A stretch of DNA of 64,000 nt from Alphaproteobacteria bacterium (GCA_965226045.1 CBDDBU010000021.1:1-64000); one strand, 5' to 3'. Counted from the stretch's first letter, positions 1 through 49,661 are shown. A program made the numbers and translations. Notes: generated by a model from the letters alone, not told the origin.

Positions 1-729
1 TACGCGAACGCGCTGCCGTGCTCGCTCGCCTGGGAGGCATTCAAGGAAGCGAACGGTGCCCACTCAGGGCGGGAAATGCGTGCTGGCATCGCCCGTCTCC
101 GCCACGCGGATCCAGGCGATAGCAGCGACTTCGAGATTGGGTGCCGCATTTTGACCCAGCCCTTCTTCTTCGCGGAACGCGACTGGATTCCCCCGCCGGC
201 GAGTTTCTCGCCGAGAATTGTGTCTTTCAAGACCTACAACACAGACAGTGCCGAAGGACTGGCTTTGTGGGAAGCCGTGAACGGTCGCCTCAGCCGGCCA
301 CAGATGGCGGGCATGGCAGGGGAGCAGGCGCGATTTGGCGAGCCGCATCTCATTCGTCCTCGCCTCGGGCAAGGCGCGTTCCGCGTGCTGGTCACGGATA
401 TCTATTGGCGGCGATGCGCGGTCACTCAAGAGCGGACACTGCCGGCTTTGGAGGCGGCGCATATACGCCCCTACGGCGATGGCGGTGCACACGAGGCGCA
501 GAACGGTCTTTTGCTGCGGCGGGACATTCACAGCCTGTTCGACGCCGGCTATGTGACGGTGACTCCCGATCTGCGCTTCGATGTAAGCCGACGGATCCGG
601 GAGGAGTTTGACAACGGCAAGCACTACTACGCGCTTCACGGTCGCAAAATCGATGCGCCTTCGGATATCGGCCAGCGCCCGGATACCGCCGCCCTGACTT
701 GGCACAACGAGCATTGTTTCAAGGGATGA
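1..729 (+). CDS. HNH endonuclease (HNH_2 / restriction-endonuclease-like), 5' partial at window edge
   Basis: Reading frame is open from position 1 (no in-frame stop upstream of the listed Met at 76). C-terminal motif AAHIRPYGDGGAHEAQNGLLLRRDIHSLFDAGYV matches the His-Asn-His spacing of HNH nucleases. GC3-rich codon usage. Confidence 0.5.
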   Translation, partial: YANALPCSLAWEAFKEANGAHSGREMRAGIARLRHADPGDSSDFEIGCRILTQPFFFAERDWIPPPASFSPRIVSFKTYNTDSAEGLALWEAVNGRLSRPQMAGMAGEQARFGEPHLIRPRLGQGAFRVLVTDIYWRRCAVTQERTLPALEAAHIRPYGDGGAHEAQNGLLLRRDIHSLFDAGYVTVTPDLRFDVSRRIREEFDNGKHYYALHGRKIDAPSDIGQRPDTAALTWHNEHCFKG

Positions 730-795
730 CGGAGAACGCCGATGACCGATGACGACCCCGACACCCCGATGCGCATGGTGGCTTTCGAGAATGTG

Positions 796-854
796 CTAAC
801 AGCCCGTTGATTAAGTGGCTTTTTCCGGCTCTCACTCCCAGATGAGGAATGCGG
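796..854. repeat. 59-bp terminal inverted-repeat copy (IS5/IS1182-like end, CTAACAGCCCGTTGA...)
   Basis: Near-perfect reverse-complement match to 8169..8226 (one mismatch). Begins with the same CTAACAGCCCGTTGA motif as the IS at 41247. Confidence 0.7.
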
Positions 855-888
855 CGGCGAAAGCCGTCTGGCCGCTTTGCGAGACCCC

Positions 889-2229
889 TGTCCCTCCCAT
901 TTATTCCATCTATCGCAGAAACCTTGGAATTTTGCATCACCACCGGATACCCTTTCCGGCATGCATAAGATCATCGACTTTCAATCGGCATGCATAAGAT
1001 CTCGGGCGCGCCGTCGCGCTTGCCAATCTTCGCGGACCGCGCGGCGCTCCACACAGAAATCCTTGCCCTGCGACAGCAGGTAGCTGTCCTGAAACGGAAA
1101 AGGCCCCGGCCATCGCTTCGGAAGGCAGATAGGGTTTTCTGGGTCATCCTGTCTTGCCTATGGCCTGGCTGGCGCCACGCCCTGGTAATCGTCAGGCCCG
1201 AGACCGTCATCGGTTGGCACCGCAAGGGGTTCAGGCTTTTCTGGACATGGAAGTCGCGGCGGAGAAAGCCGGGCCGACCACCGGTGTCGAGGGAGATCCG
1301 CCATCTGGTCCGACGGATGTCGCGGGAGAACACACGGTGGGGCGCACCTCGGATCCATGGCGAGCTTTTGAAGCTTGGCTTTTCCATCTCCCAGGCCGCC
1401 GTCTCGAAATACATGGTCCGTTACCCATCGCCGCCATCGCAGTCGTGGCGGACATTCCTTACAAATCACGCCGATTGCCTGGCGTCGATCGATTTCTTCG
1501 TGGTCCCCACGGCCACGTTCCACCTCCTGTTCGGGTTCATCGTGCTCCACCACGAGCGCCGCCAGATCGTGCATTTCGGTGTCACGGCGAACCCGACGAT
1601 GGCGTGGGTCGCACAGCAGATCCGAGAGGCATTCCCGTGGGGCACGGCGCCGCGGTACCTGATCCGCGACCGGGACGGCGCATACGGGCAATCGTTCCGC
1701 TCGACCGTGACGGCGATGGGCGTGGAAGAGGTCGTTACGGCGCCACGGAGCCCGTGGCAAAATCCGTATGTGGAACGCCTGATCGGCAGCGTGAGGCGCG
1801 AATGCCTGGACCATTCGATCATCCTCAACGAGCGGCATTTGCGGCGCATTCTTGGCTCATACCTCGACTATTATCACGGTTCAAGGACCCACTTGTCGCT
1901 CGGCAAGGACACCCCGGATGGACGACCCGTTCAGCCGGCCGGGTCCGGAACGGTCGTTTCCTTGCCCAAGGTCGGCGGTCTGCATCATCGTTACGAACGC
2001 CTCGCGGCCTGACCACCCCCGCTCGGATTCGATCAATTCCTCTCTGTGGCAACGTGGACGCTGCCGGCATCCGCATGCCCTTGCATAGGTTCGCTGGCAC
2101 GATCCGGCGGAATAAGCATCGTGATGACCGCGCCCATGGTCGATTACAAAATCCACTGGCTCAAAATGATGTCCGTGCCGGAGAGCCGAGCCGTCGTTGG
2201 GAGGCACGATGGAATAAATGGAAGGGACA
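889..2229 (+). mobile_element. IS481-family insertion sequence, copy 1 (carries a 47-bp insertion near the transposase start)
   Basis: About 1.3 kb unit, repeated at 4213..5506. Terminal inverted repeats are TGTCCCTCCCATTTATTCC (left) and GGAATAAATGGAAGGGACA (right). Encodes an rve/DDE integrase-type transposase. Confidence 0.8.
990..2012 (+). CDS. IS481-family DDE transposase (integrase core domain)
   Basis: 340 aa. HTH region (RWGAPRIHGELLKLG), rve core (DFFVVPT ... DRDGAYG ... SPWQNPYVERL). Identical to the 4285..5289 product apart from the N-terminus. Confidence 0.8.
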   Translation: MHKISGAPSRLPIFADRAALHTEILALRQQVAVLKRKRPRPSLRKADRVFWVILSCLWPGWRHALVIVRPETVIGWHRKGFRLFWTWKSRRRKPGRPPVSREIRHLVRRMSRENTRWGAPRIHGELLKLGFSISQAAVSKYMVRYPSPPSQSWRTFLTNHADCLASIDFFVVPTATFHLLFGFIVLHHERRQIVHFGVTANPTMAWVAQQIREAFPWGTAPRYLIRDRDGAYGQSFRSTVTAMGVEEVVTAPRSPWQNPYVERLIGSVRRECLDHSIILNERHLRRILGSYLDYYHGSRTHLSLGKDTPDGRPVQPAGSGTVVSLPKVGGLHHRYERLAA

Positions 2230-2589
2230 GGCCAGCACGGCCGCAGACCGAATGCAGGATCGCGCATCGTTGAGACAGCCTGCCCCGGGTTGCTTCTGCC
2301 GGCTTCAGACCGTCCCGCCGCCGTCGACAGTATGTCGACCGCTGGACCGGCTTGGCTCACGCCAACCTTCCGTCCTGAGCAAGGAGTGACCCGATAGCCA
2401 TATCTGCCATACTGGCTGGCCAAGCGGATGATCGCGGCCGCATCTGGCCTCCATCATCCCGTTCCCGGGGCTCTTGAGCGAGCGATGTTCCTGCAACAGC
2501 ACGGCACGTCGCTCGGAGAAGTTCGGCCTGGAGATGATCAACACGGCGGCCGATTAGCATTCTGAGCGCCTCTTTCAATTATCAGCTTA

Positions 2590-2860
2590 TCCAACGTCAG
2601 ATCCAGCGTTCCACGGATTCTGCTGCTCCAGGTCCTTCAGACGCTTGGCCCAGTACGAAGGCCGCCATATTCCTTGCACCAGCGGTAACCTGCGCCGGAT
2701 ACGCCGGCGACGACAAGTTCAACGGGCTGGCCCTGCGCCAAAGCCACACTGCGGTCTTCGAGCAACATGCTGATAATCTGCTGAGGTGTCGCGGACGGCT
2801 CATGTTGTCCTCCTTTCGAGGGGGCAAATGCGCCAAACTCCAATCAATCTGGACCATTTT
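2590..2860 (-). pseudogene. IS3-family (IS407-like) orfA remnant, multiply frameshifted
   Basis: Fragments GVSGAGYRWCKEYGGLRTG and AKRLKDLEQQN are spread over three frames and resemble the IS407-group OrfA (FYRWRKKYGG ... KRLKELEAEN). Truncated by the IS481 copy at 2229. Confidence 0.3.
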
Positions 2861-4212
2861 GCCTCACTCGATAACGCTCGAACAGCTGCCAAGTCATCAC
2901 GCTGATACACCGCCCATGCTTTTTCGTGGCACGTGAAAAAGGTGATTGTGCCGGTATCGCCAATCTGAAGAATTGACCCCGCTTCAGATCGCCGTTGATT
3001 CCGGTTCCGTCCCGGCGCAGCATTTTGGCTCTGTGAACTATATTTGAGGGGGGCCCTGGATGAGATCGCACCATCGACCTCTTGAAGGGTGTAAGGATCG
3101 CTCACGGCAGACCGAACTCGCCGATCCTGACAAGACGGGACCAAGGTTCATGTTGGGATGGGTCCTGTAAGCCCAAGGTCAAGCGAGAAATTTTAGTACC
3201 GAACGCCATCGTCTCAAGAACTCCACGCACGTGGATCGAACGTATCGTCCCTGGTCCTCATGCGTGCCGATGTTCCAGCCGCGTGATCGTCTGCCCTCGC
3301 GGTCGATGCCGGCAATGAGTGGGCGTTCCCGCCAGTTCGTCATATGGCCTCTGTTGTAGCTCAGGGCCGTCTGTGATCGTTAGCATTTGAGCTATGAAGC
3401 TGCCGTGTCGATCAATGGACTCATGTAGCCGTTCTGCTCCGTCCAGGTTCCCCGCCCTGCCAATCCCGGATGGGTTGAGTTTGAACGATACCCGCCCGCA
3501 GATAGAGACATCGTCGATGGTATAGTGCGTACGTGGCAGCTGTAGACCCGCCTTGTCTTATGTCGCTCAATCCGTTCGCCTCTTGGTGCCATGTGAATGA
3601 GGACTTCGCCATCGATCTGTTTTTCCGACATGTTTCTCCGATCTGCAACTTCAACTCCTGGCAATCGTCGATCGCCTGGACATTGCACGCCACGACATAG
3701 CCTCGATGCTTCTCGCTCGCAGCCCTCGACGATGCCTCGATGGGAAGCTTGGGGTGGATAGGGCTGAGCCCGGTCCCCACGACTTGGCGGAAGGCCTTTG
3801 AGCAAAATTTCGACACCATCTTGGAGCGGGCCATGTGAGACTGATACCCCTCTCCTGCGCCAAACGGTGAAGTTTCCAGGCCTTGCCTCCGTCACATTTC
3901 CTCGGCCTAGGCGCCGCTGCCCCAGCCAGATAAGGACGTACAGCGGGAGCGTACAGATGTCATCATCGGAACAAGATTTTCGAGGGATGTCAGTCACGGG
4001 GTCTGCCGGAATCCTCCGGCATTTGGATCTGGAGGCAAGATTGCTGCAGCGTTCCGCTGTTACCCGCCAAGCGTTGAGAATCAGCAAACCACTCGCAGCC
4101 AATGGCGAGGCGTCCCATTCGAGTATTCATGTTGATCAATCTGTAGCGAGGACGGCTCGAGCTGGTGCCGAACCCGTTGCAATCCAAAGCAGACTTCCCT
4201 GTTGTGAGACCC

Positions 4213-5506
4213 TGTCCCTCCCATTTATTCCATCTATCGCAGAAACCTTGGAATTTTGCATCACCACCGGATACCCTTTCCGGCATGCATAAGATCATCG
4301 AAATCTTCGCGGACCGCGCGGCGCTCCACACAGAAATCCTTGCCCTGCGACAGCAGGTAGCTGTCCTGAAACGGAAAAGGCCCCGGCCATCGCTTCGGAA
4401 GGCAGATAGGGTTTTCTGGGTCATCCTGTCTTGCCTATGGCCTGGCTGGCGCCACGCCCTGGTAATCGTCAGGCCCGAGACCGTCATCGGTTGGCACCGC
4501 AAGGGGTTCAGGCTTTTCTGGACATGGAAGTCGCGGCGGAGAAAGCCGGGCCGACCACCGGTGTCGAGGGAGATCCGCCATCTGGTCCGACGGATGTCGC
4601 GGGAGAACACACGGTGGGGCGCACCTCGGATCCATGGCGAGCTTTTGAAGCTTGGCTTTTCCATCTCCCAGGCCGCCGTCTCGAAATACATGGTCCGTTA
4701 CCCATCGCCGCCATCGCAGTCGTGGCGGACATTCCTTACAAATCACGCCGATTGCCTGGCGTCGATCGATTTCTTCGTGGTCCCCACGGCCACGTTCCAC
4801 CTCCTGTTCGGGTTCATCGTGCTCCACCACGAGCGCCGCCAGATCGTGCATTTCGGTGTCACGGCGAACCCGACGATGGCGTGGGTCGCACAGCAGATCC
4901 GAGAGGCATTCCCGTGGGGCACGGCGCCGCGGTACCTGATCCGCGACCGGGACGGCGCATACGGGCAATCGTTCCGCTCGACCGTGACGGCGATGGGCGT
5001 GGAAGAGGTCGTTACGGCGCCACGGAGCCCGTGGCAAAATCCGTATGTGGAACGCCTGATCGGCAGCGTGAGGCGCGAATGCCTGGACCATTCGATCATC
5101 CTCAACGAGCGGCATTTGCGGCGCATTCTTGGCTCATACCTCGACTATTATCACGGTTCAAGGACCCACTTGTCGCTCGGCAAGGACACACCGGATGGAC
5201 GACCCGTTCAGCCGGCCGGGTCCGGAACGGTCGTTTCCTTGCCCAAGGTCGGCGGTCTGCATCATCGTTACGAACGCCTCGCGGCCTGACCACCCCCGCT
5301 CGGATTCGATCAATTCCTCTCTGTGGCAACGTGGACGCTGCCGGCATCCGCATGCCCTTGCATAGGTTCGCTGGCACGATCCGGCGGAATAAGCATCGTG
5401 ATGACCGCGCCCATGGTCGATTACAAAATCCACTGGCTCAAAATGATGTCCGTGCCGGAGAGCCGAGCCGTCGTTGGGAGGCACGATGGAATAAATGGAA
5501 GGGACA
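4213..5506 (+). mobile_element. IS481-family insertion sequence, copy 2
   Basis: Same inverted repeats and body as 889..2229 but without the 47-bp insertion. No target-site duplication evident. Confidence 0.8.
4285..5289 (+). CDS. IS481-family DDE transposase
   Basis: Start set at the internal Met (MHKIIEIFADRAAL), because the listed ORF start at 4165 lies outside the IS left end at 4213. rve-domain motifs as in copy 1. Confidence 0.75.
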   Translation: MHKIIEIFADRAALHTEILALRQQVAVLKRKRPRPSLRKADRVFWVILSCLWPGWRHALVIVRPETVIGWHRKGFRLFWTWKSRRRKPGRPPVSREIRHLVRRMSRENTRWGAPRIHGELLKLGFSISQAAVSKYMVRYPSPPSQSWRTFLTNHADCLASIDFFVVPTATFHLLFGFIVLHHERRQIVHFGVTANPTMAWVAQQIREAFPWGTAPRYLIRDRDGAYGQSFRSTVTAMGVEEVVTAPRSPWQNPYVERLIGSVRRECLDHSIILNERHLRRILGSYLDYYHGSRTHLSLGKDTPDGRPVQPAGSGTVVSLPKVGGLHHRYERLAA

Positions 5507-5588
5507 AGCTATCGTGCAAGGGATGAACGGCAAGCGGTTGCAATACCGCGAGCTGGTGGCCTAGTCGGCCACCACTGAAATCGTAAGG

Positions 5589-5644
5589 GCCGTCTCCGAC
5601 GCTGGCAGGCTGGGAGAGACGGAGACCCCATCGGCTTTTTTTTC
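5589..5644 (+). terminator. Rho-independent-terminator-like hairpin plus T9 run (orphaned)
   Basis: CCGTCTCC ... GAGACGG stem followed by CCCCATCGGC and nine T. Lies about 80 bp past the IS481 copy-2 right end, with no intact upstream gene. Confidence 0.4.
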
Positions 5645-6776
5645 ACTAGTCGCAACTGGGTGCCGGATGCACAAGTCCCTATCAATCCCAGCCCGAGACG
5701 GTGAGTTCGTACCCGCACGCGCGGCACCTGAATTCGGCGAAAGTATCGTCTCCCGTGGCGACAAATCTGTCTTTACTGACCTCGAGCACCGAGACGGCCC
5801 CCCGGATTATGAAGCAGTCGGGACAACGCAGGTCAGCCCCAAGACGCGGTCTAAACTTGAGAAGGCGCTGATACGCCGCGCCCGCTATCTTACTTTCCTC
5901 TGTCTTCTTCGTGCTTTGCGTCTGAAGGTCGAGTGTCTCGAGATCAAGGCGCGGCCTTCTTCTTCACTTGCTGCGCCGCAAGGTCACGGGCGCGCTTCTT
6001 AATCTCATCGTCAGTTCGTGCATAAGCGAGACTGCTTCTTCCACGTATGTAAGGTACCGCTTATGCACTTTGTTCCGGCGCAACCAACATGTTGCGGGGT
6101 GACCCAGGTTTGGCGCGGATGGCGATGGCGAACAGGGAGCGGACAGGTGGCGTGCCGCGTTCTGCGTCGGTTGAAGCGGAAGACCGAAGCGGCTCGTCGA
6201 GATAGGTTTGCAGGTATTTCCTGCGCAGCCCGTGATAGACCCCCCGGGCCCAGCCCTTGAGGTTGCGGAGAACATCTGATGGATCCAGGGCAAGACAAGA
6301 TGTGCGGCCATGGCGCCGATGACGTGGGGATCTGTGCTGGTTGACGGGGACGCCGGCATATCCGGCCCATCCATCGGTCTTGGCGGTAAAGCTGCATCTT
6401 CGGGGCGATGTTACGGGCGATGAACGGCGTTGAGACTGCCGGCACCGTAGTCGGTGAGAGCGGCCAGGCGCAATCGGCAAACGGCTTGTTGCCGTCGCCC
6501 ACCTCGGATGCCACCGACCACGAGCAACTTGCCGGGTCATGGCTTCGCCCGGGGCCGAGGCCGGCGGGGTCGTTCTTGGTCCGGAAAGTGCAGGGAGGTT
6601 TCGTCGATCTCGACCAGCCCCGACAACGGATTGCGGTCTGGATCGACCATCGCCCGGCGCAGTTTGGCGGCCAGTATCCAGGCCGTGCGATAGGACCCGA
6701 GAGTCGAGCTGCTTCTGACAGCTGAAGGGCGGAGATGCCGTACCGAATGGGTCGCCATCAGATAGGCCGCCCAGAA

Positions 6777-7866
6777 CGGCTTTGGTGCATGGAGCCGCGA
6801 TGGTGTGATCGCCCATTCCCCGGTTGGTTAGCGGATCCTGATTGTGTTTGGTTTCGCCGCACGGATAGAGCGATTGAGTGCGTCGATCTGCATGGCGATT
6901 TCGGTTTGTTGGGATTGGAATGTGCGAGCGTTGAGCTTGCCGCCGTTGAGCCTCTTGACGCGAGCCATGGCTGTTTCGCCAAGCGCTCTCAATCCGTAGC
7001 CCTGTCGTTTCTGCCAGTTCATCCTTCCCTTCGACGCGATCTCCGCCGCATGGTGCTCCCGTTCCGATCCGCCATGAGGCGTGTCCGGGAGAGGAATGGA
7101 TGTGGCGCGTGGCGGGATGATGATTTCAGGTGGTGAATTCGGTGGCCGAGCTTCTCGGATCGCTTTTGTCACGGGCTCCCCGTCATAGGCGCCGTCGGCA
7201 AACACGCGCCGGATCATCCCACCGGAACCGGCGACCAGCGGTCCCGCCATCGTCGCATCGGCCGTGTCGTCACCGGTCAGTTCATGCGCCCGTATCTCGC
7301 TGCTGGCCGGGTCAACCGAGATATGCAGCTTGCGCCACGAGCGCCGCGTTTCACCGTGCTTGGCGCGAGCCCACTCGCCAGCGCCAAAGAATTTCAGGCC
7401 CGTGGAATCCAGCACGATATCCGTAGACCGCTTGTTCGTGCTGGTTTCCACAACGACATCCACCGTTCGCCGCCGCCGCGACAGCGTGGTGTGATCCGGC
7501 ACCGGCAGATCACACCCCATCAAGTCCACGAGGGAACGCACAAAGCCTTCCGTCTGGCGCAGCGGCAGTCTGAAGACCACCCCCAGCATCAGTGTCGTGG
7601 AAATCGCCAACTCTGAAAACCGCCGCTGGCCACCAGGAGTTCGCCGCTTGGCTGCGTCCCATTGCTCCAGGGCGCTCTCATCAATCCAGAAACGAATGTC
7701 GCCGCGCCGAACCAAACCACGGTCATAATCCGGCCAGTTCATGACCCGGTACTTGGCTCTGGGGATATGGTGGCGACGCGATGCGTGGAACTTGAAAGGC
7801 ATGACAAACTCTCAAAGACGGAAGCGGAGCCAGATATACTAATCCTCAGGTCCATGCACCAAACTT
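6777..7866 (-). mobile_element. IS903-group (IS5 family) insertion sequence, copy 1
   Basis: About 1.09 kb. Terminal repeat GGCTTTGGTGCATGGAGCCGC resembles the IS903 GGCTTTGTTGAATAAATC end. Single DDE transposase ORF. Confidence 0.8.
6828..7802 (-). CDS. IS5-family (IS903 group) DDE transposase
   Basis: 324 aa. Motifs KLHISVDPASSEIRAHELTGDDTADA ... FADGAYDGEP ... IIPPRA are typical of IS903-group transposases. Confidence 0.8.
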   Translation of the reverse strand: MPFKFHASRRHHIPRAKYRVMNWPDYDRGLVRRGDIRFWIDESALEQWDAAKRRTPGGQRRFSELAISTTLMLGVVFRLPLRQTEGFVRSLVDLMGCDLPVPDHTTLSRRRRTVDVVVETSTNKRSTDIVLDSTGLKFFGAGEWARAKHGETRRSWRKLHISVDPASSEIRAHELTGDDTADATMAGPLVAGSGGMIRRVFADGAYDGEPVTKAIREARPPNSPPEIIIPPRATSIPLPDTPHGGSEREHHAAEIASKGRMNWQKRQGYGLRALGETAMARVKRLNGGKLNARTFQSQQTEIAMQIDALNRSIRAAKPNTIRIR

Positions 7867-8168
7867 TCGCCTTCGCGTAGTCGCACTCGCCGACCGCCGC
7901 CCGATCACCTTGCGAACCGCTGTTCTCACCCGCCGCTCGTAGCTGTCGCGGACGATGTTCCTTCACGTCGCGGACGATCGGCTTGTTCCTGCCGAAATAC
8001 CCCCGCCGAATCCGCGCTATCGTCTCCACAACCAGCATCCCCCATCACCTCGTCCGTCCAAAACGAGGTGCCATGGACCAGCATGGTTCAGGGGGTCAAA
8101 GTTGGACGCCGATCACCCCGCAACCGGGGTCAACATGACAAACTCGTTCCAGGCAGGCCGTTCCACAC

Positions 8169-8226
8169 CGCATTCCTCATCTGGGGGTGAGAGCCGGAAA
8201 AAGCCACTTAATCAACGGGCTGTTAG
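8169..8226. repeat. 58-bp terminal inverted-repeat copy (partner of 796..854)
   Basis: Reverse complement of 796..854. Confidence 0.7.
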
Positions 8227-8342
8227 ACATTGCAGGTATTTCCGGCGGCCATTATGCTGATTGCGATGGCAGCATGGCGCCCTAACCGGGCGCTGGAGCG
8301 TCTCAATCGCTTATCCACCACGCCTGAACGAGGAGAATATCC

Positions 8343-8645
8343 ATGAAGAAGAGCCCGCTTGTTCTAACGGCCGCACTCCTGGCCGCCTCTAATCTCGCGA
8401 GCGCTGAACTCGCGCAAGCAGCAGACAATAATGCCGAATGCTATGGCGTCTCGCTCGCCGGCAAGAACGACTGCAAGGCGGGTCCAGGCACGACCTGCGC
8501 CGGTAGCTCGACTGTCGACTACCAAGGCAACTCCTGGAAGCTGGTCCCCGCGGGCACCTGCGAGTCGATGACCTTCGAGACCATGGATGGCCGTATGGTG
8601 AAGGGTAGCCTCACCGAGCTGAAACGCGATCTGCCGAAGACCTGA
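8343..8645 (+). CDS. bufA: Bufferin precursor (DUF2282 family, BufA-like), signal peptide plus Cys-rich core
   Basis: 100 aa. Sec signal ([21 protein letters not shown]), then [16 protein letters not shown] ... [24 protein letters not shown], matching DUF2282/bufferin precursors. GAGGAG ribosome-binding site 8 bp upstream. Confidence 0.7.
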
Positions 8646-8717
8646 TAGGAAACCGCTCGGTTTGCCGCCCGCCCCCATACCCCGCGGCGACCGGACGGCC
8701 GTTTCTGGACCCCGGCC

Positions 8718-9593
8718 ATGGCCGTTTCGTTTTCCGCTGCCGCCTTTCCGCCGCAGATACCGTCGCGGGCCGGTGTCGGTTTCAAGGGCGAGCATGCAGA
8801 GACGGTTTTCGGGGACCGGCCCGACATCGGCTGGTTCGAGGTCCATCCGGAAAACTACATGGTTGCAGGCGGGCCGCGGCTGGCCCTGCTTGAGGAGTTG
8901 CGCAACGCATATCCTTTGTCGCTGCACGGTGTCGGCCTGTCGCTCGGCGGCGCCGAACGTCTCGACGTTGATCATCTGATCGCATTGCTCGCGTTGGTGG
9001 ATCGCTTCCAGCCAGGGCTCGTTTCCGAACATATCGCTTGGTCGACGCATAGCGGAATATGGTTCGCCGACCTGCTGCCACCCAGCCTCAGCCGGGCCGG
9101 CCTCGACTGCCTGTGCGACAATATCGACGAGATGCAGGAATCCCTCGGACGGCAGATGCTGATCGAGAACCCAGCCAGCTATCTGACCTTGCCCGACCGC
9201 GAAATGGACGAGGCGGCGTTCATCGTCGAAGCGGCTCGGCGGTCCGGCTGCGGCCTGCTGATTGACGTCAACAACATCCATGTCAGCGCAGTCAATACCG
9301 GTATCGACGCCGAAACCTATGTCGACGCCATTCCCGGCGACCTGATCGGGGAGATCCATCTCGCCGGGTTTACGATCGACGATGCGGGCGGCGAACACCT
9401 GTTGATTGACAGCCACGGAGCCGCAGTCGACGCGGCGGTCTGGCGGCTCTACGAGCGGCTGATCGGGCGAATTGGAGCACGGCCCACGCTGGTCGAATGG
9501 GACAAGGATATTCCCGACTGGGAATTGCTGCATGCCGAGGCCATGGAGGCCGAGACCTGCCTGGCGCGTCTCTCCGAGCCCGTGCCGGCGTGA
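8718..9593 (+). CDS. bufB: DUF692 (MNIO / BufB-like) multinuclear non-heme iron oxidase
   Basis: 291 aa. Motifs GVGFKGEH, EVHPENYM, YPLSLHGVGLSLG, SEHIAW and NNIHVS are characteristic of DUF692/UPF0276 enzymes that modify DUF2282 peptides. Confidence 0.8.
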   Translation: MAVSFSAAAFPPQIPSRAGVGFKGEHAETVFGDRPDIGWFEVHPENYMVAGGPRLALLEELRNAYPLSLHGVGLSLGGAERLDVDHLIALLALVDRFQPGLVSEHIAWSTHSGIWFADLLPPSLSRAGLDCLCDNIDEMQESLGRQMLIENPASYLTLPDREMDEAAFIVEAARRSGCGLLIDVNNIHVSAVNTGIDAETYVDAIPGDLIGEIHLAGFTIDDAGGEHLLIDSHGAAVDAAVWRLYERLIGRIGARPTLVEWDKDIPDWELLHAEAMEAETCLARLSEPVPA

Positions 9594-9613
9594 GGCGGCC
9601 TGCCGAAACCAGA

Positions 9614-10393
9614 ATGGATCCCGCAGCCATTCAGTCGGATTTTGCCGCTGCCCTACACAATCCATCGCCAGATGCCGTGCCCACCGGCTTTTCCGATGTG
9701 GCGGCACGGCGGTTCCGCGTTTACCGCAACAATGTGCGCATCGCACTGATCGAAGCGCTGGGGGCGGCCTATCCGGCTGTCCTGCGGCTTGTCGGCATAC
9801 CGTTCTTCGAGCAGATGGCCCGCGTCTACATCGAAGCCTGCCCAGCACGGCAACGCACGCTCAACCTGTATGGCGACGGGTTCGACGACTTCGTCGGCGG
9901 TTTCGGGCCGGCGCGCGGATTGCCGTACCTCGCCGATGTCGCCCGGCTTGAGCGTGCGGTGCTCGAGGCGTGCCACGCTGCCGATGCACCAGCGCTTGAC
10001 CCGGTATTGTTGACGGCGCTCGGGCCCGGACTTGCCTCGGCGCGGTTGACGCCACACCCCGCGACCCGGCTGATCCGCTCGGCCTATCCCATCGCCGATA
10101 TATGGCACGCCAACAACGGCGATTCACTGCTGGAGGACGAACTCGTCCTCGCTAACACAGCCGCCGGCGCGCTCGTGATGCGGCCTGGCTTTTCCGTCTC
10201 GGTGGAGGCGCTCGCTTCCGGCCAGTGTACTTTCGTCGAGACCCTGCTGGCCGGCGACAATTTGGCGGCGGCGAACGCAGCGGCGGTCTTGTTCGATGAG
10301 GGATTCGACATCATTGTGGCGTTCCGGGACCTGCTTGCCGCGGGAGCCTTCGCCGGTATCGCAAGCAAACCGCTCGAAGGAGAACAGGTATGA
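9614..10393 (+). CDS. bufC: DUF2063 (BufC-like) partner protein of the DUF692 enzyme
   Basis: Start set at internal Met (MDPAAIQSDFAAAL), just after the bufB stop. DUF2063-like N-terminus. Overlaps the next gene by ATGA. Confidence 0.65.
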   Translation: MDPAAIQSDFAAALHNPSPDAVPTGFSDVAARRFRVYRNNVRIALIEALGAAYPAVLRLVGIPFFEQMARVYIEACPARQRTLNLYGDGFDDFVGGFGPARGLPYLADVARLERAVLEACHAADAPALDPVLLTALGPGLASARLTPHPATRLIRSAYPIADIWHANNGDSLLEDELVLANTAAGALVMRPGFSVSVEALASGQCTFVETLLAGDNLAAANAAAVLFDEGFDIIVAFRDLLAAGAFAGIASKPLEGEQV

Positions 10394-10878
10394 GCGGTGA
10401 CAAACTGACGGCCGCGGCAAGCGGCATATTGCGCAAACTGGCGCCGCTGGTCGATGGGGGCCACCGCGTTGCGGATTCCATTACGCGTCGGCTGACGCCG
10501 TTGGCGCTGCTTACCCTTCGGCTGCCGATCGCCGTGGTGTTCTGGCGTTCCGGCCGCACCAAGGTCGAGGGCTGGAGCATCTTCTCGGTCAAGGACACCC
10601 AGTATTTCCTGTTCCGGGAGGAGTTCGGCGTGCCGCTGCCGGAACTCACGGCCCATCTCACAGCGCTGGCCGAGCACATTCTGCCGGTCCTGCTCGTGCT
10701 TGGCCTGTTCACGCGTCTCAGCGCACTCGGAATGTTCACCATGACCATGGTTATCCAGCTATTCGTCTATCCCGACGCATGGTTGAGTGCCCACATGTTC
10801 TGGGCGGTCATCCTGCTCGCCGTGATGGTACTCGGGCCGGGAACGATCTCGCTCGATAAACTGCTGTTCCGCCGGTAG
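10390..10878 (+). CDS. bufD: DoxX-family membrane protein (BufD-like)
   Basis: 162 aa with 3-4 predicted TM helices. Translationally coupled to bufC. DoxX is the usual fourth gene of buf1-type operons. Confidence 0.65.
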   Translation: MSGDKLTAAASGILRKLAPLVDGGHRVADSITRRLTPLALLTLRLPIAVVFWRSGRTKVEGWSIFSVKDTQYFLFREEFGVPLPELTAHLTALAEHILPVLLVLGLFTRLSALGMFTMTMVIQLFVYPDAWLSAHMFWAVILLAVMVLGPGTISLDKLLFRR

Positions 10879-11195: not shown

Positions 11196-12423
11196 GGCTT
11201 TGGTGCATGGAGCCGCGATGGTGTGATCGCCCATTCCCCGGTTGGTTAGCGGATCCTGATTGTGTTTGGTTTCGCCGCACGGATAGAGCGATTGAGTGCG
11301 TCGATCTGCATGGCGATTTCGGTTTGTTGGGATTGGAATGTGCGAGCGTTGAGCTTGCCGCCGTTGAGCCTCTTGACGCGAGCCATGGCTGTTTCGCCAA
11401 GCGCTCTCAATCCGTAGCCCTGTCGTTTCTGCCAGTTCATCCTTCCCTTCGACGCGATCTCCGCCGCATGGTGCTCCCGTTCCGATCCGCCATGAGGCGT
11501 GTCCGGGAGAGGAATGGATGTGGCGCGTGGCGGGATGATGATTTCAGGTGGTGAATTCGGTGGCCGAGCTTCTCGGATCGCTTTTGTCACGGGCTCCCCG
11601 TCATAGGCGCCGTCGGCAAACACGCGCCGGATCATCCCACCGGAACCGGCGACCAGCGGTCCCGCCATCGTCGCATCGGCCGTGTCGTCACCGGTCAGTT
11701 CATGCGCCCGTATCTCGCTGCTGGCCGGGTCAACCGAGATACGCAGCTTGCGCCACGAGCGCCGCGTTTCATCGCCTTCTGCCGGTCGTTCTTCCCCTGG
11801 TCCCGCCATCGTCGCATCGGCCGTGTCGTCACCGGTCAGTTCATGCGCCCATCTCGCTGCTGGCCGGGTCAACCGAGATATGCAGCTTGCGCCACGAGCG
11901 CCGCGTTTCACCGTGCTTGGCGCGAGCCCACTCGCCAGCGCCAAAGAATTTCAGGCCCGTGGAATCCAGCACGATATCCGTAGACCGCTTGTTCGTGCTG
12001 GTTTCCACAACGACATCCACCGTTCGCCGCCGCCGCGACAGCGTGGTGTGATCCGGCACCGGCAGATCACACCCCATCAAGTCCACGAGGGAACGCACAA
12101 AGCCTTCCGTCTGGCGCAGCGGCAGTCTGAAGACCACCCCCAGCATCAGTGTCGTGGAAATCGCCAACTCTGAAAACCGCCGCTGGCCACCAGGAGTTCG
12201 CCGCTTGGCTGCGTCCCATTGCTCCAGGGCGCTCTCATCAATCCAGAAACGAATGTCGCCGCGCCGAACCAAACCACGGTCATAATCCGGCCAGTTCATG
12301 ACCCGGTACTTGGCTCTGGGGATATGGTGGCGACGCGATGCGTGGAACTTGAAAGGCATGACAAACTCTCAAAGACGGAAGCGGAGCCAGATATACTAAT
12401 CCTCAGGTCCATGCACCAAAGCC
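11196..12423 (-). mobile_element. IS903-group (IS5 family) insertion sequence, copy 2, disrupted by a ~120-bp internal partial duplication
   Basis: Same ends as copy 1 (GGCTTTGGTGCATGG ... CCATGCACCAAAGCC). Body identical except for the duplicated segment around 11760..11880 and a point difference. Confidence 0.8.
11246..12359 (-). pseudogene. IS903-group transposase, split by internal duplication / frameshift
   Basis: ORFs 11246..11944 and 11841..12359 together cover the 324-aa transposase of copy 1, with the repeated segment HELTGDDTADATMAGP. Confidence 0.8.
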
Positions 12424-26096: not shown

Positions 26097-26370
26097 AGAA
26101 AACAGAGGGAGAATCTCATGCGGGTCAAACAAAATGATACCACCAAGACCACCCAGCGGACCGCGATCAGTCGCCGGCGCCTGATGGGCACGACGGCCGC
26201 CGTGGCGGCCGCCGGCGCGATCACGGGCTTCCCAGAAAACAGAGGGAGAATCTCATGCGGGTCAAACAAAATGATACCACCAAGACCACCCAGCGGACCG
26301 CGATCAGTCGCCGGCGCCTGATGGGCACGACGGCCGCCGTGGCGGCCGCCGGCGCGATCACGGGCTTCCC
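26097..26370. repeat. Perfect 137-bp tandem duplication covering the RBS, start codon and signal-peptide N-terminus of the ABC substrate-binding-protein gene
   Basis: Units 26097..26233 and 26234..26370 are identical. 137 is not a multiple of 3, so the first start (26118) reads into a frameshifted 67-aa ORF while the second start (26255) heads the intact gene. Confidence 0.85.
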
Positions 26371-40789: not shown

Positions 40790-41052
40790 GCGTGAGCCGG
40801 CCGATCAGACCCGGTCACCACTCGACCGAACCGGTTTCACCAGAACCCGACCGTCTCCTGGCAGATATCGATGCCGCGCTCGGACAGAAGGTCCTCGACT
40901 TGGCGCAGCGACAGCGGATAGCGGACATACATCATCACCGCCAGGCGGATCACCTCGGGCGAGCTGTTGAAGTAGCGGACGGGATCGCGCATTGCCGAAA
41001 GCTGAGGAGCCTCGCCAGGGGCCTCAAGCCGATTTACTCTGACAATGCCCCC
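40790..41052 (-). mobile_element. IS6-family element, 5' fragment (IRL plus first ~60 codons of transposase), truncated
   Basis: GGCATTGTCAGAGTAAATCGG inverted repeat and MRDPVRYFNSSPEVIRLAVMMYVRYPLSLRQVEDLLSERGIDIC are identical to the complete copy at 48855, then diverge. Confidence 0.7.
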
Positions 41053-41246
41053 TGCATCTCTATACCGAAGCGTTGCTATCGGCGGTCCCGGTGCCCGATC
41101 CGGCCGTCCGCAGCAAAAGGCGGATCCTGCTGGAGGGAGACGTGCCGAGCCCAATAGACCCACCCTCGGGCTGCCGGTTTCACACCCGGTGTCCGTACGT
41201 CGAGGCGCGCTGCCGCACCGGGACACTGGGTCGCCTGCCACATGCG

Positions 41247-42725
41247 CTAACAGCCCGTTGACGAAGTCTTCCCTGGACGAAGTCGGCATGGTCTGATTCT
41301 CTGGTGTCCTGGCCTGAAGGGGGGTTCGCTGATGGCGATGGGACAGCAGAAGGATCGTCAGGGGGACTTGATGGTGAGCTGGTCGGAGATGCCGCGCTCG
41401 CCAGGTCATGTATTTTACGACCGCCTGCAGTTGGTACTGATCGAGGGCGGCTTCGACGGCTTCGCCGAGGCGGTCTGCCAGCCCTATTACGCGGCCAGGA
41501 TGGGGGCGCCTTCGGTGCCACCCGGGCGCTACTTCCGTATGCACCTGGTGGGCTACTTCGAGGGTATCGACTCTGAGCGTGGGCTGGAGTGGCGCTGCTC
41601 GGATTCCCTGTCGCTACGGGAGTTCCTGCTGTTGGAGATGCGGGAACGGGTGCCGGACCATTCCTGGCTGTCACGGACCCGCGCGCGCCTGCCCCATGAA
41701 GTCCACACGGCGGTGTTTGACTGGGTCCTGGCGCTGATCGCCGAGGCGGGTCTGGTGAAGGGCGAGCGCATCGGGGTGGATGCCTCGACCATGGAGGCCA
41801 ACGCGGCGCTGCGCAACATCGTGCGGAGGGACACGGGCGAGGGTTACCGGGGGATGCTGGAGCGCTTGGCCCAGGAGAGCGGTATCGAGACACCCACGGC
41901 TGAGGACCTGGCGCGTCTGGACCGCAAGCGCAAGGGCAAGAAGCTCTCGAACCAGGACTGGGTTTCCAGGAGCGACCCCGAGGCCAAGATCGCCAAGATG
42001 AAGGACGGCACCACGCACCTGGCCTACAAGCCCGAGCACGCGGTGGATCTGGACACCGGCGCGGTGGTGGCGGCGGAGCTGCACCCGGCCGACGAGGGCG
42101 ATACGACAACGCTTCCCAAGACCCTGGCGGCGGCCGAGGCAAACCTCGAGGCGGTGGATGTGGCGCCGACGGCCGAAGATCCGGCCGAATGTGTGACCGA
42201 TAAGGGCTACCACTCACGGTTGGTCTTGAAGGCGCTCGACGACGGCCCCTGGAAGAGCCGGATCTCCGAGCCCAAGCAGAAGGGTTTTGCGCGCTGGCAC
42301 GGAGATGATGCGGCTCGCCGGGCGGTCACCAACAACCGGACCCGGCTGTTATCGGGGGTGGCCAGGGAAGCCTTCAAGCTGCGCGCCGAGATCGTCGAGC
42401 GCTCCTTTGCCCACAACCTCGATCGCGGCGGTATGCGCCGGACCTGGCTTCGGGGCCGCGAGAACGTGCACAAGCGATACCTGCTTCACGTCGCCGGCCA
42501 CAACCTATCGTTGCTGATGCGCCAACTCATCGGCGCCGGCACCCCGAAGGAGGCCGTGGCGGGCGGAATTGGCGCCTTGTTCGTGCTTGTTACGCCCGCT
42601 GGAGCCGTCCTGGTCGTTCAGATCGTCCTCATCGTCTCGGAGGATGGCGAAACCGCCTTCGCCGCGATATGCTTCGCCGTGGCGTGAAACCCGGTCAATG
42701 ACGCCTTTTTCAACGGGCTGCTAAG
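41247..42725 (+). mobile_element. IS5/IS1182-family insertion sequence (~1.48 kb)
   Basis: Inverted repeats CTAACAGCCCGTTGACG and CAACGGGCTGCTAAG. Single 451-aa DDE transposase. Confidence 0.75.
41332..42687 (+). CDS. IS5/IS1182-family DDE transposase
   Basis: 451 aa. Conserved N-region (GRYFRMHLVGYFEGIDSERGLEWRCSDSLSLREFL) and C-terminal DDE_Tnp_1-like region (VTDKGYHS ... ERSFAHNLDRGGMRRTWLRGRENV). Confidence 0.8.
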   Translation: MAMGQQKDRQGDLMVSWSEMPRSPGHVFYDRLQLVLIEGGFDGFAEAVCQPYYAARMGAPSVPPGRYFRMHLVGYFEGIDSERGLEWRCSDSLSLREFLLLEMRERVPDHSWLSRTRARLPHEVHTAVFDWVLALIAEAGLVKGERIGVDASTMEANAALRNIVRRDTGEGYRGMLERLAQESGIETPTAEDLARLDRKRKGKKLSNQDWVSRSDPEAKIAKMKDGTTHLAYKPEHAVDLDTGAVVAAELHPADEGDTTTLPKTLAAAEANLEAVDVAPTAEDPAECVTDKGYHSRLVLKALDDGPWKSRISEPKQKGFARWHGDDAARRAVTNNRTRLLSGVAREAFKLRAEIVERSFAHNLDRGGMRRTWLRGRENVHKRYLLHVAGHNLSLLMRQLIGAGTPKEAVAGGIGALFVLVTPAGAVLVVQIVLIVSEDGETAFAAICFAVA

Positions 42726-48605: not shown

Positions 48606-48854
48606 CCGACCTCCCCGGTTTCAAATCGTTCCAAAAACCGGACAGATCGTCTGCTACCTAACCCGGACATATCATCTGCTACTGACAGATACGACGAGCT
48701 CGCCCCCGCCACTGCCACCAAATGCCGCCCAGACGTTCGTCAGACCAAGGCGACCCCGTCACCACAAACTGCGGCAGCCGGTGGGCCTGTCAGAGATCAG
48801 GACTGGCCGCGCGTCGGTAAATACAAACTGCGGCGCCGTTCGAGACGGCTCTCG

Positions 48855-49661
48855 GGCACTGTCAGAGGGAATCGGCTTGCGGCCCCTGGCGAGGCTCCTC
48901 AGCTTTCGGCAATGCGCGATCCCGTCCGCTACTTCAACAGCTCGCCCGAGGTGATCCGCCTGGCGGTGATGATGTATGTCCGCTATCCGCTGTCGCTGCG
49001 CCAAGTCGAGGACCTTCTGTCCGAGCGCGGCATCGATATCTGCCACGAGACGGTCCGGTTTCTGGTGGAGCCGGTTCGGTCCGATGTTCGCTGCGGAGAT
49101 CCGCAAGCGACGTGTTGATAGCCGGTCACATTCACAGTGGCGCTGGCATCTTGACGAGGTGTTTGTGCGGATCAATGGCGAGACCCGTTACCTCTGGCGT
49201 GCGGTTGATCACGAAGGCGAGGTGCTCGAGGTCTTCGCCACGAAACGCCGGGACCGCGGGGCTGCGCTGAAGTTTCTGACGCGCGCGATGAAGCGCTACG
49301 GCCGCCCACGGTCGATCGTCACGGATCGTCTCCGCTCGTACCGGGCTGCGATGAAGATCGTTGGCGTTTCGGATCGCCAGGAGTGTGGCCGATGGCTTAA
49401 CAACCGGGCAGAGAACTCACACCAGCCGTTCCGACGACGTGAACGGGCCATGGCGCGGTTCCGAAGTCCGACGACGCTGCAGAAGTTCGCCTCCGCTCAC
49501 GCCTCCGTCCACAATCATTTCAACCACGAGCGCCATCTCACGAGCCGCAAGGTCTACAAGGAAAAGCGTTCAGCCGCTCTAGCTGAATGGCGCAGCCTCG
49601 CTGCCCGACCGCAGCCGCCGTTCCGTTTTCTGCGGACTGCCACTTTTGTCTGACAATGCCC
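48855..49661 (+). mobile_element. IS6-family insertion sequence (807 bp), complete ends, transposase frameshifted
   Basis: IRL GGCACTGTCAGAGGGAATCGG, IRR GGGCATTGTCAGACAA (reverse complement). Length typical of IS26-like elements. Confidence 0.8.
48912..49653 (+). pseudogene. IS6-family transposase with +1 frameshift (extra C in GTCCGGTTTCTGGTGG)
   Basis: N-part MRDPVRYFN ... ETVRF is in one frame. The remainder WWSRFGPMFAAEIRKRR ... YLWRAVD ... TDRLRSY ... NNRAENSHQ is in the next frame. Confidence 0.75.

Follow-up and report, generated by a model that had tools for sequence, protein, structure and literature searches.

In a 64,000-nt stretch of Alphaproteobacteria DNA (CBDDBU010000021.1:1-64000, hereafter the window, all window coordinates being counted from its first letter), two 59-bp inverted repeats lie 7.4 kb apart and enclose debris of insertion sequences (ISs). 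The question raised by this locus is whether the two arms are the ends of one transposon or came to lie there by separate events. We conclude that, very probably, two copies of a single IS, here given the provisional label ISX (reference copy L007:4828-6271), each left its transposase-distal end behind as one of the arms, and that the arms are inert relics. L-numbers designate retrieved loci, of which L007, L010 and L027 are on CBDHDJ010000004.1, L028 is OZ253470.1 and L050 is ERZ28763718 ctg125677. Positions within ISX are numbered from the transposase-distal tip (nt 1) inward.

The inverted repeat described in the original prediction was recovered. Over 59 nt, 796-854 is the reverse complement of 8168-8226 apart from a single mismatch, 836(T)/8186, the right arm starting at 8168 rather than at the 8169 first noted. 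The similarity extends weakly to 66 nt (94%), and a 59-nt inverted repeat is far beyond chance. The GC content of the interval is unremarkable. Both arms had been said to begin with the motif of an element at 41247, and a scan of the window found the 15-mer CTAACAGCCCGTTGA exact at 796, 8226(-) and 41247 and nowhere else. With 2 mismatches it recurs at 42724(-), the opposite end of the element at 41247, and with up to 3 mismatches it gives 8 matches in the window compared to 0.97 expected. The reported lack of a cognate transposase between the arms also held, as tblastn with the ISX transposase in 796-8226 gave only aa 431-448, encoded at 888-835(-).

The source element was located by scanning the arm's first 23 nt against one genome per species. 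This gave 44 loci from several alphaproteobacterial metagenome-assembled genomes (MAGs), 26 of them from a single MAG, CBDHDJ01, and beyond 59 nt every match goes on identically for a good distance. Finding an intact element with these ends had been proposed as a check, and the scan yielded 28 full-length copies of 1444-1453 bp. ISX is 1444 bp long (CAG...CTG), with one open reading frame (ORF) of 448 aa encoding a DUF772/DDE transposase. Its terminal inverted repeat (IR), CAGCCCGTTGATTAAGT, is 17 bp in the reference copy; among the full-length copies the tip IR is perfect over 17 bp in 25/28 and over 16 bp in 2, and in the remaining copy the tip base is mismatched. The flanking 4-mers of the 28 copies are all nTAn and are the same on both sides in 17, of which 16 are CTAA/CTAA. 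The ISX target duplication is 4 bp, usually CTAA.

None of the 28 copies carries the 59-bp segment at both ends, the two ends of each copy agreeing at only 26-30 of the first 59 positions. The segment, which an intact relative might have placed inside the element, is terminal, but at one end only. Considering that it sits at the transposase-distal end only in 28/28 copies, both arms are the same end of ISX. The ORF is directed toward this end, with its stop 32 nt from the tip, and the 59 bp are made up of a 4-nt flank, the 32-nt non-coding tip, the stop codon and the transposase's final six and two-thirds codons. Because the segment includes the stop and last codons, both arms are gene 3' ends; the window holds the remains of two ISX copies back to back, with the 3' ends of their transposase genes outward.

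The left arm (window 800-888) is 98.9% identical to nt 1-89 of the reference ISX, and an IS481-like element interrupts this copy at nt 89-92. The right arm (8222-8168) is 98.2% identical to nt 1-55 and breaks off after about 55 nt, where the end of an IS21-family element adjoins it, although degenerate ISX similarity may reach about 8156. It reads AFLIWG-stop, compared to AFLIWE-stop in the consensus, so that the lone mismatch of the inverted repeat falls in the last codon.

Relatives of the left arm, reached via protein cluster members, showed what the left ISX copy had entered. In the empty site (L050), an intact 308-aa HNH_2 gene, hnh2, directly follows a first HNH gene, with 96.6% DNA identity to window 1-799. 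A tblastn search with the L050 product found the remaining 290 codons of hnh2 nowhere in the 64-kb window. L028 is 100% identical to window 549-888, and its ISX goes on to nt 106 where the window has the IS481-like element. An IS256-like insertion follows nt 106; after it ISX picks up again from nt 98 and runs to nt 758, where it gives way to an IS21-family element and then gene fragments. L028 has another stub of this ISX end (nt 423-1), 6.4 kb off and facing outward, with a TTAT flank and a neighbourhood that is missing from the window. The HNH-ISX(1-89)-IS481 junction is shared by L051, which diverges past window 1856; this ISX/IS481 junction is not present in L028. In L052 an IS1380-family element abuts the same CTAA as the left ISX, with CTAG at its other flank, while L053 and L054 have a different junction, 8 bp upstream of the left ISX site. 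Among these loci hnh2 is intact only in L050, and ISX stands at the CTAA in the window, L028 and L051. The first 18 or so codons of hnh2 are a recurrent breakpoint (window 742-800; L052:1570-1600; L053:10970-10990).

The right arm has an unrelated setting. The sequence beyond 8226, which is unrelated to hnh2, lies upstream of a bufferin-type operon (DUF2282/BufA1, MbnB-like, HvfC, DoxX). The ~55-nt stub upstream of bufA1 is also found in L045-L048, with 99% flank identity. In L046 and L047 its inner neighbour is an IS21-family element in complete form; in the window and L045 that element is cut short at window 7960, next to an IS903-group copy, which in L045 has the orientation opposite to the window's. 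In L048 an IS903-group copy sits directly at window 8157. The HNH flank was not found within the 4-10 kb of upstream sequence at L045-L048, and the 7.4-kb pairing of the arms is therefore specific to this strain. Each arm is thus found without the other within 6-10 kb in related strains, with differing neighbours.

The following course of events would account for this arrangement. Two ISX copies would have inserted independently and in opposite orientations, one into a CTAA site and one into a TTAG site, and a second IS would then have landed in each. Recombination or adjacent deletion via these secondary ISs may have taken out the ISX bodies together with the DNA on their far side, a step consistent with the missing target duplications and with the different junction partners in every strain, and this would have placed the two stubs, in this strain only, 7.4 kb from each other. 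The inverted-repeat look is incidental; two stubs of one end have an even chance of inversion. The second alternative of the original prediction, that two solo ends mark an old inversion or deletion, stands as far as the two solo ends and their being unpaired in relatives are concerned, but we found no specific evidence for one inversion or deletion.

Several points weigh against reading the arms as relics of two ISX copies. The exact order of events cannot be reconstructed, and 2860-4212, 5507-6060 and 7864-7959 are without assignment. The arrangement of 796-8226 rests on the window's own assembly. The left arm in OZ253470.1 is also paired with an outward like-end stub, at its 6.4-kb distance, and this second pair could hint at a recurrent mechanism rather than coincidence. 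Finally, 5 nt outside the arms are alike (AATGT[G]CTAA compared to AATGT-CTAA); we judged this likeness to be chance, since ancestral coding sequence of hnh2 makes up the left flank.

Among the alternatives, the one that survives best, though we regard it as improbable, is that both copies derive from one ISX by intramolecular replicative transposition (a duplicative inversion), later deletions having shortened the interval. Replicative intramolecular transposition yields a pair of inverted copies whose like ends point outward, with inverted target copies. The outward like ends and the flanks in the window, CTAA before the left tip and TTAG after the right, which are mutual reverse complements and not a direct duplication, are as expected. 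However, CTAA/TTAG is the preferred target in either orientation, so the flanks have no discriminating power, and every inner junction able to test the proposal is gone. Strains without an HNH-side arm in the 4-10 kb of sequence upstream still keep the right stub at the bufferin operon, and in L028 the left arm is paired with another stub. To our knowledge, replicative transposition is not established for the IS group of ISX. Of the same low probability is the broader proposal that like-end ISX pairs are non-accidental, being formed by intramolecular replicative transposition or mobilisable in trans as large non-autonomous cargo units. It is drawn from the same left arm being paired here (7.4 kb) and, with another partner, in OZ253470.1 (6.4 kb).

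Somewhat less probable again is that the arms bound a unit mobile as a whole, either a composite of two inverted ISX copies with the geometry of Tn5 and Tn10 or a giant derivative resembling a miniature inverted-repeat transposable element (MITE). Two inverted copies do show the same end outward with both 17-bp tips intact, L028 has its second outward-facing like-end pair, and MITEs mobilised by IS1182-family elements have been described in Paracoccus (PMC11578231). Nevertheless, no direct 4-bp duplication surrounds 796-8226, the flanks are not contiguous in the L050 empty site, and neither a second copy nor a short like-end pair was seen among 61 loci. In related strains either arm has another partner or stands by itself, and the L028 pair is also without matching flanks (CTAA/ATAA).

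The first alternative of the original prediction, one ancestral IS1182-like element with 59-bp terminal IRs whose interior and transposase gene were replaced by serial IS insertions, is scarcely credible: although the arms are inverted, start with an IS-end motif and enclose only IS debris, and although the 17-bp tip is the family's true terminal IR, it is refuted by the one-ended segment of the 28 copies, which makes both arms gene 3' ends, by flanks lacking a direct duplication and by an empty site in L050 that runs from the left flank into hnh2 and not into the right flank, the arms being moreover separate in relatives.

The interval between the two ISX relics was then resolved into its parts (Table 1). 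The two IS481 copies, the IS903 copy and the IS3 remnants listed in the original prediction were all located, with IS481 copy 1 starting 34 bp inside the left repeat where about 35 bp had been estimated. The IS1595 remnant and the IS21 piece had been missed.

Table 1 Features of the window at and between the two arms, with the intact relative of ISX
Feature	Position	Strand	Description
hnh2, first 18 codons	742-795	+	second HNH_2 gene, target of left ISX; tblastn with L050 product aa 1-18
CTAA target 4-mer	796-799		outside the IS though within the noted 59 bp
Left ISX stub, nt 1-89	800-888	-	17-bp IR 800-816, stop 832-834, last 18 codons 835-888
IS481-like copy 1	889-2229	+	TGT...ACA, 24-bp IRs, transposase 990-2012; within ISX nt 89-92
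Degraded DNA, mostly unassignable	2230-4212		holds IS3-family orfA pseudogene
IS3-family orfA pseudogene	~2480-2860	-	79% to L033 7587-7997, coding there for an intact IS3 OrfA-like protein
IS481-like copy 2	4213-5506	+	TGT...ACA ends; lacks 47-48 bp (copy-1 978-1024)
IS1595-family transposase remnant	6061-6816	-	Pfam DDE_Tnp_IS1595 and NCBIfam IS1595, weak, below cut-off
IS903-group (IS5 family) element	6778-7863	-	transposase 6828-7802; one tip lacks terminal GCC
IS21-family terminal piece	7960-~8155	-	end repeats and first ~29 istA codons; abuts right ISX stub
Right ISX stub, nt 55-1	8168-8222	+	codons AFLIWG 8170-8187, stop 8188-8190, 17-bp IR 8206-8222
TTAG target 4-mer	8223-8226		reverse complement of left flank
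ISX relative, intact	41251-42720	+	transposase 41332-42687, 451 aa; CTAA both sides; Pfam DUF772, DDE_Tnp_1 and DDE_Tnp_1_6

The IS481-like transposase is a single 340-aa ORF with the domains rve_3 and HTH_32. The IS481-like copy scored 77 bits with the NCBIfam model NF033577 (cut-off 224) and 83.7 bits with the IS3 model (cut-off 160). No matching target duplication is present at either copy. The 47-48 bp found in copy 1 (978-1024 compared to 4301/4302) are bounded by a short GCATGCATAAGATC repeat, and their deletion from copy 2 takes out the ATG at 990 used by the 340-aa ORF. The motif GAGACCC to the left of both copies was considered as a duplicated ISX flank and rejected, since the flanks of other copies are unrelated and the likeness spans about 7 nt. 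No further ISX sequence was found beyond IS481 copy 1, beside copy 2, or past the IS21 element in L046 and L047.

The IS1595 remnant has a DNA match of about 70% to annotated IS1595 transposase genes. The IS21 piece is continuous with the complete element of L046 and L047, which encodes a 503-aa IstA (NF033546, 298 bits) and IstB. The IS903-group element scored 281 bits with NF033579 (cut-off 140) and carries Pfam DDE_Tnp_1_5, which together with its ends, GGCTTTGGTGCATGGA..., in line with the IRs of about 18 bp beginning GGCTTTG expected of the group, places it there. About 2 kb of the interval are without assignment. Pfam searches of ten interior ORFs gave nothing significant, with one weak match (E = 0.086), and the plasmid database in distant mode gave no match to 2230-4212.

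We then considered the affiliation of ISX. The element at 41247, to which the original prediction had linked the arms, is indeed a relative: it shares 86.7% DNA identity with ISX nt 97-1431 over window 41280-42614, covering the transposase gene, with diverged ends. It is the only other ISX-like DNA in the window beyond the two arms, and tblastn with the ISX transposase finds it at full length at 41332-42666. Its ORF (41332-42687) carries the domain set of the IS1182 family, Pfam DUF772 and DDE_Tnp_1/DDE_Tnp_1_6 in a single ORF, and the same Pfam domains are precomputed on similar 452-aa transposases in other loci. With NCBIfam NF033551 (IS1182) the scores for the ISX transposase were 164.1 and 178.2 bits, below the curated cut-off of 270, yet this is the best-scoring family; the IS5 models gave 80-85 bits against a cut-off of 140. 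A length of 1444 bp falls in the IS1182 family range of ISfinder. ISX works like the IS1182 branch of the IS5/IS1182 group and is most likely a member, and it is probably an unnamed IS of IS1182/IS5 type, definable by its 1444 bp, 17-bp IRs and CTAA target.

ISX resembles ISPye18 and the rest of the IS1182 family in having a single transposase with DUF772 and DDE_Tnp_1/DDE_Tnp_1_6 domains and the IS1182 model as its best NCBIfam match. ISPye18 and MITEPye1 of Paracoccus yeei are reported to have 18-bp IRs and 4-bp direct repeats (PMC11578231), and the ISX tips, with IRs of about 17-18 bp and 4-bp direct repeats, are similar, the comparison being one of descriptions. ISX differs in scoring below the NF033551 cut-off, and the window has two stubs and no active copy. 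The nearest annotated relatives of the ISX transposase are at about 67% identity. One is the element on pLB1 annotated as 'IS5 family transposase' (AB244976.1, 39.6-41.0 kb), copies identical to which occur on Sphingobium plasmids; its match covers 97% of the ISX transposase at about 67% aa identity. It is built like ISX, with a similar tip (ends CAGGCCGTTGACGAAGTCGG...) and a CTAA at either flank, but it is another IS species, far under the 95% isoform level, and its distal end lacks the 59-bp segment. As in Tn5 (IS50) and Tn10 (IS10), the two inverted ISX copies show the same end outward; unlike in these transposons, they are reduced to 55-89 nt, the unit holds no ISX transposase and no direct target duplication, and no evidence indicates that 796-8226 ever moved as a unit.

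Solo IS ends and nested IS 'graveyards' are a general phenomenon in IS-expanded bacterial genomes. The window is an instance, with IS-into-IS insertions, lost target duplications, stubs and strain-variable junctions. The 7.4-kb patchwork should accordingly not be annotated as one large transposon; it is a strain-variable junction between two unrelated neighbourhoods, the HNH pair and the bufferin operon. The two solo ends are ordinary wreckage in an IS-saturated region and matter little beyond annotation. The MAG CBDHDJ01 carries more than 20 near-identical full-length ISX copies, compared to relics only in the window and in the single retrieved OZ253470.1 locus, a small illustration of IS expansion and decay.

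Further searches were made around the locus. Exact-protein look-ups found no record of either the IS481-like transposase or the truncated HNH ORF, and the plasmid database in near mode, queried with window 1-9600, returned DUF2282 matches only and no IS. A scan of JGI metagenomes with an arm 36-mer gave zero matches. With an arm 23-mer it gave 6 loci: two full-length relatives (88-89%), L057, a 376-bp ISX end fragment cut by the locus end, and L058-L060, which are solo or rearranged ISX stubs. No pair of like ISX ends was present among these 6 loci. In L058 (281-342) and L059 (4378-4439) the solo stub comprises ISX nt 1-61, with an ATAG flank and no transposase behind it, which suggests that distal-end relics are common for ISX.

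Head-to-tail tandem ISX copies with a single CTAA between them occur at L007:4828-7719, L010:~3635-6526 and L027:1-2656, and their simplest reading is that a new copy inserted into the CTAA duplication beside an existing one.

The bufferin-type operon next to the right stub comprises bufA1 (8343-8645) and genes for MbnB-like (8718-9593), HvfC-like (9497-10393) and DoxX (10390-10878) proteins; scanning the right stub, which lies upstream of bufA1, for promoters found nothing. A second IS903-group copy lies at window 11196-12420; about 140 bp inside it are duplicated in tandem (11658-11774 compared to 11799-11913, 96.6%), which should disrupt its transposase. The operon and the ISX and IS21 stubs are bracketed by these two direct IS903-group copies, 6778-7863 and 11196-12420, in a geometry like that of a composite transposon. 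The bracket has no evident 9-bp duplication, and its left copy lacks 3 nt at the inner tip. The same bracket is present in L048, with the left copy 294 bp nearer.

Elsewhere in the window, 228-bp inverted repeats (96%) at 40824-41050 and 48854-49081, about 7.8 kb apart, enclose the intact ISX relative. A minus-strand ORF (40837-41544) overlaps the first of these arms and may be a transposase fragment. Window 26097-26233 is repeated without a mismatch as 26234-26370, a tandem duplication of 137 bp.

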